NCBI GenBank assembly: GCA_017513085.1
Contig: JAFWDK010000024.1
Location: forward strand, 1-64,000
Reading direction: 5' to 3'
From: Clostridiales bacterium
Lineage (GTDB): Bacteria; Bacillota; Clostridia; Saccharofermentanales; Saccharofermentanaceae
Length of the DNA: 64,000 nt
Shown here: positions 9,572 through 38,081 of the stretch, piece by piece
Numbering within the stretch: position 1 is the first letter of the stretch
Layout of the letters: each line of letters opens with the position of its first letter
Translations under genes and position numbers: made by a program
The notes under the pieces: generated by a model
Seen by the model: only the letters and a program-made list of their open reading frames with translations
Database searches by the model: none
Told to the model about the DNA's origin: nothing

Positions 9572-10090
9572 ATGAGTATTACTGCAATCGTTGCTGTGGA
9601 TGAAAACTGGGGAATTGGATATAAAGGTGAACTGCTGGCAAGTCTTCCTGAGGACCAGAAATTGAATTTTAAAGTTAAAACTCTGGGACATCCGGTTATA
9701 TATGGAAGAAAGACATTAGAAACGTTCCCGAAAGGCAAGCTTTTGCCTGGCAGAGAAAACATAATCCTTACGCGGAATCCGGATTTTTCTTATGAGGGTG
9801 CCACGATCATGCACTCAGTTACGGAAGTGGTGGAATATGCGGAGAAGCAACCGGATGAAACTTTTTTTATCATTGGCGGAGCACAGATCTATGAGCAGTT
9901 CCTGCCTTATTGTGACACTTGTGTCGTAACCAGGATCAAAAAGAGTTATCCGGCTGATGCGTTTTTCCCGAATCTTGATATGATCAATGCATGGGAATTG
10001 TTTTCACGTGAGCCGGAAGTTCGATCGATTAAGGGCGTAAGTTTTGAAATCTGGACGTATAGACGAGTTTCAGAATTTTTTGGGGTGTGA
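9572..10090 (+). CDS. folA: Dihydrofolate reductase
   Basis: IVAVDENWGIG, GRKT, LPGRENIILTR, IIGGAQIY, DAFFP. Confidence 0.95.
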   Translation: MSITAIVAVDENWGIGYKGELLASLPEDQKLNFKVKTLGHPVIYGRKTLETFPKGKLLPGRENIILTRNPDFSYEGATIMHSVTEVVEYAEKQPDETFFIIGGAQIYEQFLPYCDTCVVTRIKKSYPADAFFPNLDMINAWELFSREPEVRSIKGVSFEIWTYRRVSEFFGV

Positions 10091-10166
10091 AAACTGCACA
10101 AAAGAGATGTGTGCAGGATGCACAACGGTTTTCTTGTTTGTCTGTGCAACATCTACAATTCTTGCA

Positions 10167-10195
10167 TTGACGCCTTTTTTTCGTAAAGATATAAT
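10167..10195 (+). promoter_or_regulatory. Sigma-A promoter
   Basis: TTGACG-17-TATAAT upstream of the small HPr-like gene. Confidence 0.75.
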
Positions 10196-10273
10196 GAAAC
10201 CGCAAAGACAGGAAAGCTTTGCAGAGGAAAAAAGAAAGAAAGAAAACTCATTTAGATTAAGGAGGTAGTCATC

Positions 10274-10540
10274 ATGAAGGCTTTTAACATGAGCAATGTA
10301 GATGTTCACCAGTTTATGCAGGCACTTGATTCTTGTTCCGGCGATGTAATGCTTATTACAGATGAAGGTGACAAGTTCAATCTCAAGAGCAAGCTCAGCC
10401 AGATCACAGGTTTGATGAAGCTGATCGAAGGTGGTAAGCTTGTTGATGCTAAGATTTATTGCTCTAACGTTGAAGACGAGGCTCTGCTTTTCAGACTGAA
10501 TCTTTTCGGAACAGTAGAAGAAGTCGATCATATCGGCTAA
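10274..10540 (+). CDS. Small HPr-fold-like protein of unknown function
   Basis: 88 aa, strong AAGGAGGT RBS; FNLKS resembles the HPr Ser46 motif; no His15 motif. Confidence 0.6.
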   Translation: MKAFNMSNVDVHQFMQALDSCSGDVMLITDEGDKFNLKSKLSQITGLMKLIEGGKLVDAKIYCSNVEDEALLFRLNLFGTVEEVDHIG

Positions 10541-10594
10541 TCCTACGAGCAAAAGATCTTAAGAGCGGAAACATCCGCTTGGTATGATTTTTCT

Positions 10595-31130: not shown

Positions 31131-31219
31131 GTATTCCTTATGCATAGCAAGTGATATGTACTTTTTAATGTTGATGGTCTAGAATATATAGGTATTCTTA
31201 CTTTAATAGGAGCGTGCTT

Positions 31220-32683
31220 ATGATACAGTGTGAAAGAGGTCATTTCTTTGATGAGAATCGTTATTCCGGTTGCCCTTATTGCAATCAGATCAATAATCAG
31301 CAAAGGAGTGTGATCCCACCGATTGCTCCGGCAATGGAAATTCCCAAGCCTTCTTGTGGAAAGACAGTTGCTATTGAAGGAATGGATACAACTCCATCTG
31401 TAGGCAAGACCGTTGCCATAGATAACTTTGAAGAGAATACTCCACATATCGGAAAAACAGTTGCCATCACAGAAGATGCAACATATGCTCCACCGGCTGC
31501 TCCGTCATCCGTAGAACAGGTATCTTCGCCTTCGGTTGCAGCAGCTCCTGTTGCACCAGTAGCAGCTGCTGCAGTGGCTGCTCCTTTTTCAGAGCCAACA
31601 CCGTTTACAGCACCGACGTCTTCGGAAAATACAGCTGTTTCCAATGGTTCCCTGTTTAATGACGGGGCTCAGGAACAGCCCGGACCGGCTTCAGAACAAA
31701 CGGATCCGGAGTCCATTATGAGACCTTATCAGGTTACCGGTCTTGGTGTTAAGGAGAATCCTCAGCCGATTCCGGTCAGTGAACCGACTTATGAGCGTCC
31801 GTACGCTGTTTCCGGCCTTGGTGTCAAAGAGAATCCGACTCCGACGTCTGCTGTAGAGGTCGGTGCAACATTCCCGGTTCCGCAACAGGGAGAAGCTCCT
31901 ATGTCTGCTGAAGCCAGTGCTTTTGCTTCTGTGGGATTCCCGGGAGGTCCGAATCCTTTTATGGCTCCCGGCATGATTCCGGGTATGCCTGTAGGCGCAC
32001 CGCCTGCACCTGTCCCGACTACTCCAAATGTTGAAGTTCCTGCGCCAATAATTGAACCTGTTTCTTTGAATGGTGAAAATTCTGCTTCAGTAGTGGAAGA
32101 ACCTTCTCCTGAAGTTTCGGAAGCAGCTTCGGTAATAGAAGAAACTGTTCCGGTAGTGGAAGAAATCGTACATTCTGAACCGGAGACGGTTCCTGCAGTT
32201 GCAGAGACGGTTCCTGTTGAACAGCCTGTCGTTGCTCCGCAGGCCGCGCCTATCGAAACTCCTGTTGCTTCTCCGTTCATTATGCCTGCTCCTGTGGATC
32301 CGCATGCCACGGTGGCAATGACGGAATCGGATATGGATTATCTTCCGAGAGTACATGCCCGCGCGTTCCTCGTTTGTACAGATGGTCCTATGACCGGAGC
32401 ATCTTTTGTATTCCAGGAGAATAAGGCTATTATCGGACGTCAGAAGAATTATGAGATTTCATTGTTCCGCGATCCGTCGGTATCCCGTAGTCCGCATGCC
32501 ATTATCAAGTATGACAAGGATAGTCTAACGTATACCGTTGCTCCGGGTGATGCTGAAAAGAGAGTATCTGTAAATGGAACATTCATTACTTCCGAGCAGT
32601 CTTTAGGTATTTACGATATTTTGGGTATCGGACAATCCAGACTCTTATTTATTCCTGTTTGCAGTGAGAAGTTTGCATGGTAA
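31220..32683 (+). CDS. FHA-domain protein with N-terminal Zn-ribbon-like motif and long Pro/Ala/Glu-rich linker
   Basis: CERGH...CPYC at the N-terminus; IIGR...SVSRSPH...VNG FHA at the C-terminus; AGGAG RBS. Confidence 0.85.
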   Translation: MIQCERGHFFDENRYSGCPYCNQINNQQRSVIPPIAPAMEIPKPSCGKTVAIEGMDTTPSVGKTVAIDNFEENTPHIGKTVAITEDATYAPPAAPSSVEQVSSPSVAAAPVAPVAAAAVAAPFSEPTPFTAPTSSENTAVSNGSLFNDGAQEQPGPASEQTDPESIMRPYQVTGLGVKENPQPIPVSEPTYERPYAVSGLGVKENPTPTSAVEVGATFPVPQQGEAPMSAEASAFASVGFPGGPNPFMAPGMIPGMPVGAPPAPVPTTPNVEVPAPIIEPVSLNGENSASVVEEPSPEVSEAASVIEETVPVVEEIVHSEPETVPAVAETVPVEQPVVAPQAAPIETPVASPFIMPAPVDPHATVAMTESDMDYLPRVHARAFLVCTDGPMTGASFVFQENKAIIGRQKNYEISLFRDPSVSRSPHAIIKYDKDSLTYTVAPGDAEKRVSVNGTFITSEQSLGIYDILGIGQSRLLFIPVCSEKFAW

Positions 32684-33612
32684 GTTTTCTCTTAGCAGTC
32701 AATTCGGAAAAATTGAAGTCATTCCTGAATAAGTGGGGATTTCTTTGTGGTATTGCACTTGCGCTTATCGTGATAGGTGTAATTGTAGCTGTTTGGCTGA
32801 TTTTGAAAAAAAATACGCAAGAAGAGCCATCTTCTGATACAAATCCGAATGGGTCGCTTGGTTCGATGGATAATGGTTTTTTTAGAATTGAAGTCGGAAA
32901 CTGCCAAGGTTTGGGCGAAAGAGATGAGCAACAGGATGCTTTCGGCTTTTCTCCCAATGCCAAATGGAAAGATAAAGGATTCCTGGCTGTGCTTTGTGAT
33001 GGAATGGGCGGTCTTGATTCTGGAGCTGTGATTTCCAACAAACTGGTATCAGATGTAATCAAAGAGTTTCCTTATTCGTTTGAAGAATTGAAGGATGGTT
33101 GGATCATTGATTCTCTTTCTGCAGATATTTATTCGAATTATTACGGTAGAGGTGGTACAACGCTGATCATTACTTTCCTTAAGGGTGATAAGCTTTGGTT
33201 TGCTTCGGTCGGAGACAGTGATCTTCTTCTTTATCGTGAAGGCCGGATCTATGCTATGAATCAACGTCAGGAGTATGGTAATAATTTGCTCATGAAAGTC
33301 GTTGATGATGCACTTTCCATGGAGCAGGTGATAGGTAACAGTGATGCTCCTGCGCTTACTGAATATATGGGCGCACAGCATGCTGAAGCTGATTATTCCA
33401 TCCGCCCTTGGCAAGTTAAAGAAGGAGATGTCTATCTTCTTTGTTCAGATGGTGTTTCGGATACATTGACTTTTGACGAGATCCGTGAGGCAATGTCTCA
33501 TGATGCTTCCGAGTGTGCGGAACTTCTCGAGAAAGGTATAATAGAGAAGAATAAGCGGTTTCAAGATAATTACACGGCTATCGTGTTTTCAATAAAAAGG
33601 GTGGAGGTATAA
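32677..33612 (+). CDS. Membrane-anchored PP2C-family Ser/Thr phosphatase
   Basis: N-terminal TM; R..QQD, CDGMGG, GTT, VGDS, CSDG, DN motifs. Confidence 0.9.
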   Translation: MVSFLLAVNSEKLKSFLNKWGFLCGIALALIVIGVIVAVWLILKKNTQEEPSSDTNPNGSLGSMDNGFFRIEVGNCQGLGERDEQQDAFGFSPNAKWKDKGFLAVLCDGMGGLDSGAVISNKLVSDVIKEFPYSFEELKDGWIIDSLSADIYSNYYGRGGTTLIITFLKGDKLWFASVGDSDLLLYREGRIYAMNQRQEYGNNLLMKVVDDALSMEQVIGNSDAPALTEYMGAQHAEADYSIRPWQVKEGDVYLLCSDGVSDTLTFDEIREAMSHDASECAELLEKGIIEKNKRFQDNYTAIVFSIKRVEV

Positions 33613-33615
33613 AAA

Positions 33616-34944
33616 ATGAAGTGGGTTAAAAGAATTGTTATGATTGTGCTGGCTTTGGGTATTGTTGGTTCAGGTATCCTGGCGTTCCTGTCTTACAATA
33701 ATTGGAAAGATGCAGATAAAGAAGTTACTCGTCTTTCTCTTTTGCAGGATGAGAATGGTGTATCCATTCCTACTACGGAAAATCAGAAATCTGTCGTATT
33801 GGTTGCCTGCATGAATAATCAAGGTTACGGTGGAGAAGGAACCGGATATGCTGTAGGTGAATATGGTGAAGATGTAAAATACATTGTTACCAATGGTCAC
33901 GTAGTTTCTTTTATGGAAGAGGATGATGCCTTTCAGGCTTACGTGTTTTTCGGAAAGAACGACTATCAGATCGCAGAAGTCGTATTTTACCAGTACGACA
34001 AAGATATGGATATGGCTATTCTGAAACTTCCAAAAGCAATCGATGAGCGTATTCCTGTAGCGATCCGTGATTCGGATGATGTAGACGTCGGTGACAAGTG
34101 TGTGGCTATAGGCTTCCCGGATAAGGCAAATAATCTCGATACGAATTTTACTCCTGATATTGCCAGTCAGACGGTTACCGCAGGTGTAATCGGAAAAGTA
34201 AAAGTTAATCCTGCCGGAAAGAATTATAAGTCTTTCCAACATGATGCGTTTATTACACATGGTAATTCCGGTGGACCTCTGTTTGATGAACATGGTTTCT
34301 TGATCGGTATGAATACAGAAGGCCGTGAGGATTCTGAAAACGTTAACTTCTCTATCATGAGTAACGAGATCACAAAAGTCCTGAAAAAGAATAAAATCAA
34401 ATTCATGACAGATGAGGATTATATTGAGGAAGCCGCTGCAGACAAGAAAGCCAGCAAGGGCAAAAAGTCCGAACTCAGTAAGAAAGAAGATGAGGCCCAG
34501 GCAGAAAAGACCAAGTTTTTCGTATTCCTGGGCGTAGGTGCTGCTTGTGCGGTTGCACTGCTCGTTCTTGCAATCCTTGGAAACAAAAAGGTCGTTATGG
34601 TCGGTGAGCAGGATGATGGCAAGAAGTCCTATCTTACCTGCACTAAGGGTATATATGCCGGACAGAAATTCGAATTTACCGATCACACCATGACGATCGG
34701 GCGTGATCGCAATACATGTACTTTCGTTTTCCCGGAAAACACACCGGGTATCAGCTCGAACCACTGTTCCGTATACTTTGATCCAAGAACGAAGAGTTTT
34801 GTGTTGACGGATAATGGCTCAACATATGGCACATATCTGTCTGACGGAAGAAAACTTACCAAAGGAGTTCCGGAACAGTTGACTCCGGGTTCGGTATTCT
34901 CTTTGGCAGATAAAACCAACGAATTCCTTGTAGAAAGAGAGTAA
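33616..34944 (+). CDS. Trypsin-like serine protease with second TM and C-terminal FHA domain
   Basis: TNGHVV (His), DMAILK (Asp), HGNSGGP (Ser); TM FFVFLGVGAACAVALLVLAIL; IGRD...SSNH...GSTYGT FHA. Confidence 0.9.
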   Translation: MKWVKRIVMIVLALGIVGSGILAFLSYNNWKDADKEVTRLSLLQDENGVSIPTTENQKSVVLVACMNNQGYGGEGTGYAVGEYGEDVKYIVTNGHVVSFMEEDDAFQAYVFFGKNDYQIAEVVFYQYDKDMDMAILKLPKAIDERIPVAIRDSDDVDVGDKCVAIGFPDKANNLDTNFTPDIASQTVTAGVIGKVKVNPAGKNYKSFQHDAFITHGNSGGPLFDEHGFLIGMNTEGREDSENVNFSIMSNEITKVLKKNKIKFMTDEDYIEEAAADKKASKGKKSELSKKEDEAQAEKTKFFVFLGVGAACAVALLVLAILGNKKVVMVGEQDDGKKSYLTCTKGIYAGQKFEFTDHTMTIGRDRNTCTFVFPENTPGISSNHCSVYFDPRTKSFVLTDNGSTYGTYLSDGRKLTKGVPEQLTPGSVFSLADKTNEFLVERE

Positions 34945-34945
34945 G

Positions 34946-35653
34946 ATGGATTTTTATTCATATACAAACAAAGGCGGACATGAACCGAATTGTGATTATC
35001 AGCAGGTCATCGAGCATGATAATAAAGTGCTGATGGTGGTCTGTGATGGTTTGAATGGTCTGCCTTCCGGAGATGAAGCGGCAAAGATCATCGGAGATAT
35101 CGCCATTGCGTCCCTGATTGAAGGCCAGGAGCCTTCCCAGGCTTGTGTTACCGCAAATGCGAAGTTTCGCGAGATGCAGTTTGATAATGTCAATCTCCGA
35201 CGTGCAGGCGCTACGATATGCGTAGTCCGTATTGCTGACGGAATCTGCAGCTGGGCGAATGTCGGGGATTCCCACATCTATCACTTTTCGGAGAGTTCTC
35301 TGGTACACCATTCGTGTGACGATACGTTTGCATATCAGATGTTTGTACGTGGAGAGTGTGACTATGAGGCACTTCGAGAGATCGAGAACCGTACCGGGAT
35401 GAATGTTTGTATTGGACAGAAAGATACTGTTGAGCCACATGTTGAAGAATTTCCGATAGCTGATTCGGATGGAATACTTGTATGTTCGGATGGCTTCTGG
35501 GAAAATGTATATGAAACGGAAATGACGATCGATTTCGTGAAATCTTTTAATGCTAAAGATTGGGCGAGAAAGATGCTTCTGCGTGCGATCCAACGTGGAC
35601 AATTTAAGGGTGATAATCTCACTCTGATTACATATATAAAGATGGCAGGTTGA
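34946..35653 (+). CDS. Soluble PP2C-family phosphatase
   Basis: NCD, CDGLNG, NVGDS, CSDGFW, DNLT motifs. Confidence 0.88.
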   Translation: MDFYSYTNKGGHEPNCDYQQVIEHDNKVLMVVCDGLNGLPSGDEAAKIIGDIAIASLIEGQEPSQACVTANAKFREMQFDNVNLRRAGATICVVRIADGICSWANVGDSHIYHFSESSLVHHSCDDTFAYQMFVRGECDYEALREIENRTGMNVCIGQKDTVEPHVEEFPIADSDGILVCSDGFWENVYETEMTIDFVKSFNAKDWARKMLLRAIQRGQFKGDNLTLITYIKMAG

Positions 35654-35657
35654 TAGA

Positions 35658-38081
35658 ATGGATACAAAAAATCTGTGTTTTGGTTGTTTTAATGCGCATA
35701 ACGGACAAGGTCCTTGTCCTCATTGTGGATTTGACCTTGCGACGGTAAAGCATCCTTTTGTTGCTCTTCCTATCGGCACGATCCTGAATGGCAGATACCT
35801 CACCGGACGTGTTCTTGGAGTGGGCGGCTTTGGTGTTACGTATCTTGCATTTGATATGACGTTGGAGATCTGTGTGGCGATCAAGGAATTCCTGCCTTCC
35901 GGAATCGCGCTTCGTGACTCTGACCGTTATACTATGACTGTGACAGCACCGGAAGAACAACCTAAATTTGATTCCGGCGCATCCAAGTTCCTTGAAGAAG
36001 CACGTCTTTTGGCAAAACTGCGAGATGTTCCGAATATTGTTACCGTGCAGGATTATTTCCGTGAAAACAATACCGCGTACTTTGTTATGGAATACGTAGA
36101 AGGTGTAGATCTTATGCGGTATACGCAGATGCGTGGTGGTAAGCTTTCTTACGAAGAGACTCTGCAATTGACTTTGCCGATTATTGATTCGTTGGCTCAT
36201 GTTCATGCGCACAATCTTTTGCACCGTGATATCAGTCCGGACAATATCGTCGTGACAAAAAACGGTAGCACACGTCTCCTTGATTTTGGCGCAGCTCGTC
36301 TGGCTATCGACACGGAGAAAAGTAAATCTATTATTTTAAAACATGGTTTTGCTCCGGAAGAACAGTACAGAAAACACGGAAATCAGGGCCCGTGGTCAGA
36401 TGAATATGCATTAGCTGCCACGATGTATCTGATTATGACCGGTGTGATGCCTCCGGATTCTATCGAGCGTGTGCATGATGACTCCCTGGTACCGCCGATC
36501 CAGCTCGGTGTGCAGATCCCGCAGCATGCAAACGATGCTTTGATGAAAGCACTGGCTGTCAGTGCTTCTGAGCGTTTCCCGGATATGAGTTCTTTTTCCG
36601 AAGCTTTGACAGGAAAGAAAGCGGTTGCTCCGGTCTCTTATGCAACAACAGGAGGAAACTACGGAACAGGTTTCGGAAGCACGGATTTGCCTACGGCGTC
36701 TTCGGCTTTGGAAGGCAATATGGTAGAGGGTAAGACTGTTGCTATGCCACAGGAGACAGAGGCTGTTACTAATCCTGCGCAAGCTGTTGCCCAGGCTCAG
36801 GCAGCTTCGCAACAAATGCCACAGAAAGTGATTTCTCCGTCGATCCTGAATCCGGATCAGAATAATGGACAGATCGCCCCGCCTTCTACTTTTACTCAGA
36901 CGCCAAAGAAGAAGAGTATCTGGAAACGGCCGGTAACTTATATCCTTGCGGCGTGTATCGCGCTGGTGGGTGCGGGTGTTCCTACCGGGATCTATTTGTA
37001 TCAGAATGGATATTTCGGCGAAGCCGAGGAATCTTCTACACGAAGAACGAAGAAAACCACTACGGAAGCTTCGGAAACAGAAGAGACGGTTCCGCCTGAG
37101 TCTTCGGAATATGCAGATCCTGCTGTGCTGGAAGATGATAATAAGAAGATCTATACGGATTCCGTCAGAGGATTCAGTATTTCGGCTCCGAAGAATTACT
37201 CTTTTGAGAATAATGATGGGATCTATGTGCTGACTCGGACTGATTCTCAATGCTTCGTCTATACTGATATGCTTTCTCATTATGGAGATTTGCGAATCAA
37301 GTCTCTTGATGATTTTGTTGCGGTAAGCAATTCTTTTGTTTCGGATTATCTCGATAATAAACTCGGACTTCAGGATTATACGTTAAAGACAGGTGAATAC
37401 CAGTTTGTTTACAGAGCGAGCAACGCGTATAGTGTCGTATGTGACGCCAATGCTTATTCAAATGGAAAACGTGTGGACGTAACTTTTGTAGCGACCGAGT
37501 TGAAAGAGAAAGAAGCGGTCCTCTTGAATTGCGCCGTGATGCCTTTAGATGAAAAGGGCATGTATTCCAGCGATGACTGGACACAACTTCAGGAAATACT
37601 GGATACGTTAATCGAGGATTCGACCAAAACGAGTTCTTATGAAATGTTTGAACATGAAAACAAGCCCAAGTTCCATTTCCTTTATAAGAAGTCGGATGTT
37701 GCGTCGATCAGTACCGAGGAGATAGCTAATTCTGTGCAGTCTACCAACCTTGTGTTTAATGGTACAGATCCTGAGAAAAATGTGATTCGTGTGGTAGCCA
37801 TGGGTAAGCAGGGTTCGATCTCAACTGCATGTAAGACAGCTGAACAAGCAATAGGATTCTCTGTCGGTGGCTATACGGCAGTTACACCGATCGTTCGTAC
37901 GAGTTCGGATATTCGTGTCAGAAACTATGCTGTACAAAAAGACGGTGAGAACCTCAATTGTACAGTCTGTGTCATCAAGATCGGTGGTCAGTACTATTCC
38001 GTTATTGCTGTCAGCGATGATGATTCTCTGGAAAAGATCGCATTGAACTTTACTTTGGTCGTTATGTCATTGTCCACATGA
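35658..38081 (+). CDS. Hanks-type Ser/Thr receptor kinase: Zn ribbon, kinase, TM, extracellular domain
   Basis: CFGC...CPHC; LGVGGFGVTY, VAIKE, HRDISPDN, DFG, APE; TM ILAACIALVGAGVPTGIYL. Confidence 0.93.
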   Translation: MDTKNLCFGCFNAHNGQGPCPHCGFDLATVKHPFVALPIGTILNGRYLTGRVLGVGGFGVTYLAFDMTLEICVAIKEFLPSGIALRDSDRYTMTVTAPEEQPKFDSGASKFLEEARLLAKLRDVPNIVTVQDYFRENNTAYFVMEYVEGVDLMRYTQMRGGKLSYEETLQLTLPIIDSLAHVHAHNLLHRDISPDNIVVTKNGSTRLLDFGAARLAIDTEKSKSIILKHGFAPEEQYRKHGNQGPWSDEYALAATMYLIMTGVMPPDSIERVHDDSLVPPIQLGVQIPQHANDALMKALAVSASERFPDMSSFSEALTGKKAVAPVSYATTGGNYGTGFGSTDLPTASSALEGNMVEGKTVAMPQETEAVTNPAQAVAQAQAASQQMPQKVISPSILNPDQNNGQIAPPSTFTQTPKKKSIWKRPVTYILAACIALVGAGVPTGIYLYQNGYFGEAEESSTRRTKKTTTEASETEETVPPESSEYADPAVLEDDNKKIYTDSVRGFSISAPKNYSFENNDGIYVLTRTDSQCFVYTDMLSHYGDLRIKSLDDFVAVSNSFVSDYLDNKLGLQDYTLKTGEYQFVYRASNAYSVVCDANAYSNGKRVDVTFVATELKEKEAVLLNCAVMPLDEKGMYSSDDWTQLQEILDTLIEDSTKTSSYEMFEHENKPKFHFLYKKSDVASISTEEIANSVQSTNLVFNGTDPEKNVIRVVAMGKQGSISTACKTAEQAIGFSVGGYTAVTPIVRTSSDIRVRNYAVQKDGENLNCTVCVIKIGGQYYSVIAVSDDDSLEKIALNFTLVVMSLST

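Follow-up and report, generated by a model that had tools for sequence, protein, structure and literature searches.

A threonine motif shared by a zinc-ribbon FHA scaffold and its operon kinase is a candidate phosphothreonine docking code in Clostridia

We analysed a 64,000-nucleotide stretch of DNA from a Clostridiales bacterium of the family Saccharofermentanaceae (assembly GCA_017513085.1, contig JAFWDK010000024.1, positions 1 to 64,000; hereafter the window), in which an operon encodes a scaffold protein whose C-terminal domain is of the forkhead-associated (FHA) type, together with a Hanks-type Ser/Thr kinase. These two proteins share a short threonine peptide that is real, strongly conserved and non-random. 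It occurs three times as GKTVAI near the N terminus of the scaffold, as ATVAM just ahead of its FHA domain and as GKTVAM in the juxtamembrane linker of the kinase. Judged from sequence and conservation, this peptide, Φ-G-K-T-V-A-[I/M] (Φ, hydrophobic), is best read as a docking motif that FHA domains would bind once its Thr is phosphorylated, a reading that we consider probable.

The shared peptide is rare elsewhere in the genome

A check of the sequence placed all five copies exactly where an earlier note on this DNA, made from the letters alone, had put them. Peptides that hold the motif with its flanks include SCGKTVAIEG (scaffold), DPHATVAMTESD and MVEGKTVAMPQ (kinase). The earlier note had also remarked that the peptide is kept while its codons differ, and the comparison bears this out: at G, K, T, A and I the copies do not all use the same codon.

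Across the genome (3.06 Mb, scanned as 19,334 six-frame open reading frames (ORFs) of at least 60 amino acids (aa), or 1,477,874 residues), the pattern GKTVA[ILMV] occurs six times, against 0.33 matches expected from amino-acid composition. Four of the six lie within the scaffold and the kinase, which together make up 1,296 residues (Poisson P ~3e-16 for at least four matches there). The fifth falls in the Rossmann loop of an ORF that resembles glutamate dehydrogenase, an identity read from its own sequence only, and the sixth in a 140-aa ORF judged to be non-coding. A proteome scan for further GKTVA[ILM] substrates had been proposed at the outset; beyond scaffold and kinase it returned no further candidate substrate with the strict motif. 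With a Rossmann loop and a non-coding-looking ORF as the only other matches, a general substrate code was rejected for the strict form. Because the strict motif marks no other protein of the genome, it would be a private code.

The motif was also looked for in the PASTA kinase (contig C13) and in the other FHA protein of the genome (contig C14) and is present in neither. The latter, the only other FHA protein by Pfam (C14:164550-165782, + strand), is ~410 aa long and has a central hydrophobic segment, a C-terminal FHA domain and no T-V motif.

Serine never takes the place of the motif threonine in scaffold and kinase homologues

We collected 71 database homologues of the scaffold, with identities of 44-97%. 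Three N-terminal motif copies are present in 67 of them and two copies in another two; a single copy is found in one short entry of 300 aa, probably partial, and none in one entry that has no N-terminal zinc-ribbon start. The strict pre-FHA pattern is matched by 65 of the 71. In a 50-sequence alignment, the column of T51 is Thr in 49/49 non-gap rows, those of T66 and T82 in 48/49 each with no Ser at all, and D362, A365, T366 and V367 are each retained in 49/49. The residue at +3 is also restricted, being L, M or I in 49/49 rows after T366, and I/V, I/L and I/V after copies 1, 2 and 3, respectively, in the window clade. Linker positions that flank the motifs vary in the same alignment. Eight loci with shared synteny from rumen Clostridiales genomes repeat this pattern at close range: each of the eight scaffolds has x-[KES]-T-V-A-[IV] three times near its N terminus, and x-A-T-V-[AS]-M-TESDMD ahead of the FHA domain.

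In an alignment of eight kinase orthologues, MVEGKTVAM is the sole strongly conserved island of its part of the linker, and GKTV[AG]M is present in the window kinase and in all seven close loci that reach the kinase gene. A linker search of the database found M-[VI]-x-G-x-T-V-x-[MI] in 18/18 kinase homologues, the window kinase being one of the 18. Among these, positions -1 (K/R/T/S) and +2 (A/G/N/M/Q) vary, whereas the Thr and an M or I at +3 are kept in every one; G(-2), T(0), V(+1) and the aliphatic +3 are therefore constrained. The earlier note had held that absence of the motif from homologues would speak against a docking code; what we find is its retention in both protein sets.

The scaffold FHA domain is divergent, with its phosphothreonine-binding residues predicted intact

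The FHA domain of the scaffold gives no match to PF00498, and PF16697, a member of the FHA clan, scores 24.6 bits, under its cut-off of 33.2. The fold, that of an 11-stranded beta-sandwich, was confirmed by comparing residues 379-487 of an AlphaFold2 model with solved FHA domains. SLMAP (6ar2_A) is the best match (Z 9.8, root-mean-square deviation 3.3, 98 aligned residues); further scores are 9.2 for EmbR, 9.1 for FhaA (3poa) and 8.8 for both OdhI and GarA. Profile comparison of the sequence puts GarA (chains at E 1e-5), FhaA (TB39.8, E 3.5e-5) and OdhI nearest among solved structures. Residues G408, R409, S424, R425, H428, N454 and G455 are near-invariant in 50 sequences, and the GR, S-R-x-x-H and NG elements that they form align with GR, VSR-x-HA and NGT of OdhI and GarA. 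Taken from sequence and model, then, the domain appears divergent, with the fold and the phosphothreonine (pThr)-binding residues intact. Against the NCBIfam OdhI equivalog model NF041660, the window scaffold scores 20.5 bits and P0141 34.9 bits, both below the cut-off of 200.

In the AlphaFold2 model of the scaffold, the predicted local distance difference test (pLDDT) score is 85-88 for the zinc ribbon and 66-86 for the FHA domain, and everything between them, including every motif, lies below ~55. A small relative from the family described below gives a similar profile, with an FHA domain above 93 and residues 25-64 mostly below 50. The motifs thus fall in predicted disorder, and their invariance is therefore not a fold constraint. 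In Foldseek searches, the best matches of the small protein are GarA and OdhI at 31-37% identity (7rj3_B, E 5.5e-8, 34% identity; 8p5x_G, 37% identity), and the FHA domain of DgcB (6hc0_C) is matched at E 6.6e-7.

ATVAM appears to be the ancestral copy in a wider zinc-ribbon-FHA family

A profile of the first 95 scaffold residues, searched against 1.84 billion representative sequences, returned 89 matches, most of them accounted for by the zinc-ribbon segment. The search recovered small proteins of ~175-225 aa in which a single zinc ribbon is followed by one to seven copies of Φ-G-K-T-V-A/G-x and then by an FHA domain that ends in F-x-P-x-C-x-x-x-F-x-W. The scaffold FHA domain with its tail aligns to this small family with an hhalign probability of 100% (E 1.3e-40), and members of the small family pass the PF00498 cut-off of 20.7 bits (25.6 and 30.0 bits). 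A scan of genomes then yielded 110 relatives, and we kept 80 loci, from Christensenella, Oscillospiraceae, Lachnospiraceae, Bacillus timonensis, Bifidobacteriaceae, Bryobacterales and a Pseudorhodoferax; the family ORF was recovered by pattern in 70 of the 80.

In all 70 of these small proteins, at identities down to 33%, the Thr nearest the FHA domain is invariant, with no Ser, and the residue at +3 is I, V or L in 68. Both landmarks could be located in 61 proteins, and in 49 of these the last T[VI][AGSP] stands exactly 16 residues ahead of the strand 1 F/W. The small-family linkers contain [KR]T[VI][AG] 111 times; 200 shuffles gave 1.9 on average and never more than 6. Over the 80 loci as a whole (960,674 aa), 91 matches to G[KR]TV[AGP] fall in family ORFs and 16 in the remaining ORFs, a few of these 16 being in kinases. 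Given the invariance of the proximal Thr and its fixed spacing from the FHA domain, sequence comparison indicates that ATVAM is the ancestral, position-fixed and family-defining copy, the counterpart of GKTV[GA][IVL] in the small family, and not a degenerate extra. The scaffold is a long-linker member of the family, the window clade having inserted a Pro/Ala-rich segment of ~280 aa between ATVAM and the distal copies.

The kinase copy has a narrower distribution. We rejected it as a universal trait of the wider family, in whose operons the strict motif is found in the kinase linker of a single locus (L045); looser variants occur at L055 and L082, and a Q-T-V-Y variant at eight loci. By this comparison the kinase copy is largely specific to the window clade.

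The profile matches also include relatives of other designs. Some proteins are built of 3-12 tandem C-x-x-G-H-F-Y-D ... C-P-x-C ribbons (P0073-P0083 and others); one of them, P0073, has no FHA domain and carries KTVPV or KTVAV after several ribbons. In P0091 and P0131 the same ribbon precedes what reads as a kinase-like region. P0129, a family member with two ribbons and an FHA domain, has G-K-T-L-x-[FY] in place of G-K-T-V-A-x; positions +1 and +3 therefore differ between lineages.

A proposed phosphothreonine docking mechanism and its alternatives

The conserved footprint of the motif runs from -3 to +3, with an aliphatic residue at +3, and it is always found beside genes for an FHA domain, a Hanks kinase and PP2C phosphatases. 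FHA domains are reported to have high specificity for pThr over pSer (PMC3146460), and their peptide specificity is reported to be set at pThr+3, +1, -2 and -3 (PMC4157861). The match between these positions and the conserved span supports an FHA ligand. The docking code put forward in the earlier note is partly supported by this pattern, which is the one expected of such a ligand.

In the mechanism that we propose, the Thr of each Φ-G-K-T-V-A-[I/M] in the disordered segments is the probable target of the zinc-ribbon Hanks kinase that the operon itself encodes, and one of the operon's FHA domains would then bind the resulting pThr-x-x-(I/M/L/V). The proximal ATVAM would serve as an ancestral self-ligand which, once phosphorylated, fills the pocket of its own FHA domain in cis or that of a neighbour in trans, thereby switching the adaptor. 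The three distal copies would make the long-linker scaffold multivalent. The copy in the kinase linker, once autophosphorylated, would recruit the scaffold, the protease-FHA protein of the operon (below) or both to the kinase at the membrane, and resetting the system would fall to the two PP2C phosphatases. We infer the phosphorylation itself, the pairing of FHA domains with particular copies and the choice between cis and trans binding.

Several observations weigh against this proposal. The proximal Thr lies ~13-17 residues from strand 1, a distance that would make binding in cis sterically tight, and the tether of GarA and OdhI is considerably longer. Most distal copies of the small-family proteins carry Ala at +3 (GKTVAA in 54/155 motif contexts), unlike the aliphatic residue that FHA domains usually prefer at pT+3. 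The strict motif is absent from nearly all kinase linkers of the wider family, so that kinase-borne docking is not general to the module. AlphaFold2 monomers of the scaffold and of the small protein dock no motif on the FHA domain, which is as expected of an unphosphorylated ligand and lends the proposal no support. When the FHA domain of the scaffold (residues 376-489) was co-folded with the N-terminal motif segment (residues 40-100), both control-free runs gave an ipSAE of 0.00, which counts neither way.

The Ala at +3 would suit a linear motif that works independently of phosphorylation, binding the operon's zinc ribbon or a PP2C, docking on the kinase without being its acceptor site, or engaging some other partner, for example by beta-strand addition. 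The KTVPV or KTVAV of the FHA-less multi-ribbon protein P0073 would suit it too, and the GarA FHA domain also makes phosphorylation-independent contacts, as the title of a 2009 study by Nott et al. suggests too. We nonetheless regard such a motif as unlikely: without a pThr reader it is difficult to account for the strict Thr, never Ser, of the 50- and 70-sequence alignments, the motif is found together with FHA, kinase and PP2C, and most FHA-less multi-ribbon proteins (P0074, P0076, P0078-P0082) are without it. The Thr residues might instead be kinase acceptor sites that act without being read by an FHA domain, through a charge-driven change in the linker or another interaction, and a single kinase specificity would then yield the same motif in kinase and substrate. 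In bacteria, even species that lack FHA domains are described as having kinases phosphorylated at several sites of the juxtamembrane linker; StkP is reported to carry seven phosphorylated Thr there, and streptococci to have no FHA domains (PMC12077195). However, the fixed 16-residue distance and the invariance of the proximal motif wherever an FHA domain is present tie that motif to the FHA domain and not to the kinase alone, and an aliphatic +3 is a known determinant of FHA readers; we consider this alternative quite improbable.

The three N-terminal copies stand 15-16 residues apart in a tandem-like arrangement, which might suggest that they arose by chance or are left over, without selection, from a recent internal duplication. 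The differing codons and the Poisson estimate above argue against such an origin, and conservation in the scaffold homologues, the presence of the family in other phyla and the variable linker around the motifs refute it; we give it almost no credence. A role as a cleavage site (GK|TVAI) for the trypsin-like protease of the operon was also considered and rejected. If the FHA domain of that protein is cytoplasmic, its protease domain, placed between two transmembrane (TM) segments, lies outside the cell; by this topology, deduced from sequence, the protease domain would be extracellular and the motifs cytoplasmic.

Operon, protein architecture and neighbourhood

The operon consists of five co-directional genes, for the scaffold, a PP2C phosphatase, the protease-FHA protein, a second PP2C phosphatase and the kinase (Table 1). 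The two hydrophobic stretches of the protease-FHA protein were read from its translation.

Table 1 Features of the operon and its motifs in the window
Feature	Position	Strand	Evidence or sequence
Multi-pass membrane protein, 291 aa	30255-31130	+	No Pfam match; directly upstream of the scaffold gene
Scaffold gene, 489-aa ORF	31214-32683	+	Zinc ribbon, three GKTVAI, Pro/Ala-rich linker, ATVAM, C-terminal FHA domain
N-terminal zinc ribbon of the scaffold, C-x3-H ... C-x2-C type	31220-31291	+	CERGHFFDENRYSGCPYC; invariant in homologue alignment; pLDDT 85-88
Motif copy 1, GKTVAI, T51 (489-aa numbering)	31358-31375	+	GGA AAG ACA GTT GCT ATT
Motif copy 2, GKTVAI, T66	31403-31420	+	GGC AAG ACC GTT GCC ATA
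Motif copy 3, GKTVAI, T82	31451-31468	+	GGA AAA ACA GTT GCC ATC
Repeated linker peptide of the scaffold	31724-31768 and 31796-31843	+	P-Y-x-V-[TS]-G-L-G-V-K-E-N-P
Proximal motif block, T366	32297-32338	+	DPHATVAMTESDMD; ~19 residues N-terminal of the Phe in FHA strand 1
ATVAM in the proximal block	32306-32320	+	GCC ACG GTG GCA ATG
FHA domain with family-specific C-terminal FIPVCSEKFAW tail	32357-32680	+	Fold match and pThr-contact residues
PP2C phosphatase with N-terminal hydrophobic segment	32677-33612	+	PF13672, 33.2 bits (cut-off 24)
Protease-FHA protein: TM, trypsin/HtrA-like protease, TM, cytoplasmic FHA domain	33616-34944	+	PF13365, 83 bits; PF00498, 47.9 bits
Second PP2C phosphatase, soluble	34946-35653	+	PF13672, 43.9 bits
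Hanks-type Ser/Thr kinase, 807 aa	35658-38081	+	PF00069, 105.9 bits (cut-off 31.7)
4-Cys zinc ribbon of the kinase	35676-35729	+	
Kinase juxtamembrane motif, MVEGKTVAM	36720-36746	+	GKTVAM at 36729-36746: GGT AAG ACT GTT GCT ATG
Second conserved island of the kinase linker	36825-36848	+	[KR]-[VLM]-[IL]-S-P-S-[IVL]-L

In the ORF list the scaffold begins at a GTG codon (31214; MLMIQC...). The ATG two codons on, at 31220, gives MIQCERGHFF and is likely to be the true start, because all homologues begin MIQC. The Pro/Ala-rich linker of the scaffold, ~280 aa in length, is predicted to be disordered. It contains a second peptide, P-Y-x-V-[TS]-G-L-G-V-K-E-N-P, which is repeated twice and followed on its C-terminal side by the conserved G-A-T-F-P and A-F-A-x-x-G-F-P-G-G-P. 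All three are near-invariant in 50 homologues and, from this conservation, look like further linear motifs for some partner.

The kinase comprises an N-terminal 4-Cys zinc ribbon, the kinase domain, the juxtamembrane linker, a TM segment and an extracellular domain of ~340 aa, which was assigned to no known family. Its translation contains the catalytic motifs LHRDISPDN (HRD) and DFGAAR (DFG). Besides the threonine motif, the linker has a second conserved island, the pattern of which is found in 15 of the 18 kinase homologues, and a conserved basic stretch, K-K-K-S-I-W-K-R-P, lies beside the membrane, immediately ahead of the TM segment. A 4-Cys ribbon also starts nearly all kinase-like ORFs beside zinc-ribbon-FHA genes at 63 loci, as found with a loose pattern in untrimmed upstream frames. 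The N-terminal ribbons on both kinase and adaptor may indicate a shared partner or ribbon-ribbon pairing.

Much of the gene set travels with the wider family. A homologue of the first PP2C phosphatase is present in 75 of the 80 wider-family loci and one of the protease-FHA protein (>350 aa, E<1e-20) in 62 of 80. Among the 54 loci of at least 12 kb, 50 have phmmer matches to the protease-FHA protein, the kinase and PP2C together, a count in which FHA-to-FHA cross-matches are possible. In a Christensenella sp. (L019) the gene order is that of the window, namely zinc-ribbon-FHA (at 10001-10552 of that locus), PP2C, trypsin-TM-FHA, a small ORF and the kinase; Bacillus timonensis (L053) has the same gene set in a different order. 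The 291-aa membrane protein is syntenic in the eight close loci and absent from 80/80 wider-family loci. Further neighbours, named from their translations, are topA and a trmFO-like gene and, beyond the kinase, tgt and queA on the other strand.

Comparison with known systems

The small-family proteins resemble GarA (Rv1827) and OdhI of Actinobacteria in having an FHA domain preceded by a phosphorylatable-type Thr motif in a predicted disordered N-terminal tail; GarA is said, in the title of the 2009 paper of Nott et al., to be an intramolecular switch. GarA and OdhI are described as sharing a conserved phosphorylatable ETTS motif. Their phosphorylated tail is thought to engage its own FHA domain, which also docks autophosphorylated kinase segments, the PknG autophosphosites being reported to anchor the FHA domain of GarA (PMC8546545). 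By contrast with ETTS, the motif here is Φ-G-K-T-V-A/G-Φ, it is repeated two to seven times behind a zinc-ribbon start and its proximal Thr lies nearer the FHA domain. The operon partners are a protease-FHA protein, PP2Cs and a zinc-ribbon kinase rather than enzymes of the tricarboxylic acid cycle, and the family is found in Clostridia and others rather than in Actinobacteria.

In layout the scaffold is comparable to mycobacterial FhaA (Rv0020c), in which, as Roumestand et al. reportedly described in 2011, a disordered linker of ~300 aa joins a small N-terminal domain to a C-terminal FHA domain, and the Thr motif conserved in the juxtamembrane linker of the window kinase invites comparison with the FhaA partner PknB. 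The phosphorylated juxtamembrane domain of PknB is reported to bind FhaA (PMC12077195, citing Roumestand 2011). Unlike the mycobacterial pair, the scaffold begins with a zinc ribbon and shares one motif with the kinase, and its similarity to FhaA is confined to the FHA domain. Nor does the locus resemble the division operon of FhaA and PknB (FhaB, PstP, RodA, PbpA, PknA, PknB), with no RodA, penicillin-binding protein or PknA among its neighbours.

The triple GKTVAI, seen as a multivalent scaffold, has a possible analogue in the Rv1747 module (FHA-linker-FHA, with PknF), which likewise has several Thr in a disordered linker. There, pT152 and pT210 of the linker are reported to drive oligomerization together with the FHA domains, and phosphorylation-dependent compaction, oligomerization and phase separation are described (PMC8339232, the latter citing Heinkel et al.). 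Rv1747, an ABC transporter, has both of its FHA domains in a single chain, whereas here the FHA domains are on two proteins and the Thr sites share a repeated motif. For the self-ligand, a comparison can be made with DgcB of Bdellovibrio, whose FHA domain is reported to take its activating ligand from a phosphopeptide of its own N-terminal region (PMC6733907); in the scaffold, too, the motif lies N-terminal of the FHA domain that it might engage. DgcB differs in its GGDEF cyclase output and single tail site, and in having neither zinc ribbon nor repeated motif. Each of the mechanisms put forward in the earlier note thus has a published precedent in Actinobacteria or Bdellovibrio: PknB-FhaA for recruitment by a kinase linker, Rv1747 for the multivalent scaffold, and GarA/OdhI and DgcB for the self-ligand.

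Discussion

To our knowledge, what is understood of pThr-FHA signalling in bacteria comes almost wholly from Actinobacteria and a few Proteobacteria. A search of open-access papers and preprints, without their supplements, found no description of the module, the zinc-ribbon-FHA family or the motif. The class of mechanism is already known, and the motif, the family and the five-gene module are apparently undescribed, so that the finding extends rather than overturns current knowledge.

A broader interpretation, which we offer tentatively and hold to be rather doubtful as a whole, is that the operon belongs to a widespread, undescribed transmembrane signalling module with a private phospho-address, Φ-G-K-T-V-A/G-Φ. 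Such a module would be present in Clostridia, Bacillus, Bifidobacteriaceae, Bryobacterales and a betaproteobacterium, with the zinc-ribbon receptor kinase writing the address on the adaptor. In the window clade the kinase would also mark itself, and the readers would be the FHA domain of the adaptor and the cytoplasmic FHA domain of the HtrA-like protease. Phosphorylation might then assemble a multivalent cluster at the membrane or open a self-inhibited adaptor, and so couple cytoplasmic Thr phosphorylation to extracellular proteolysis; the long-linker scaffold, with its three distal copies and one proximal copy, could be a condensate-forming elaboration of this scheme.

The analysis defines a peptide code that is precise and open to test, in which the Thr is invariant and stands at a set distance from the FHA domain. 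The module is conserved in many gut and rumen Clostridia, among them the cultured Christensenella, Gallintestinimicrobium and Hominifimenecus, and in Bacillus timonensis. It offers a simple system in which to study how an FHA adaptor may be switched by its own tail, how a kinase may recruit that adaptor and what role an extracytoplasmic protease with a cytoplasmic FHA domain may play.

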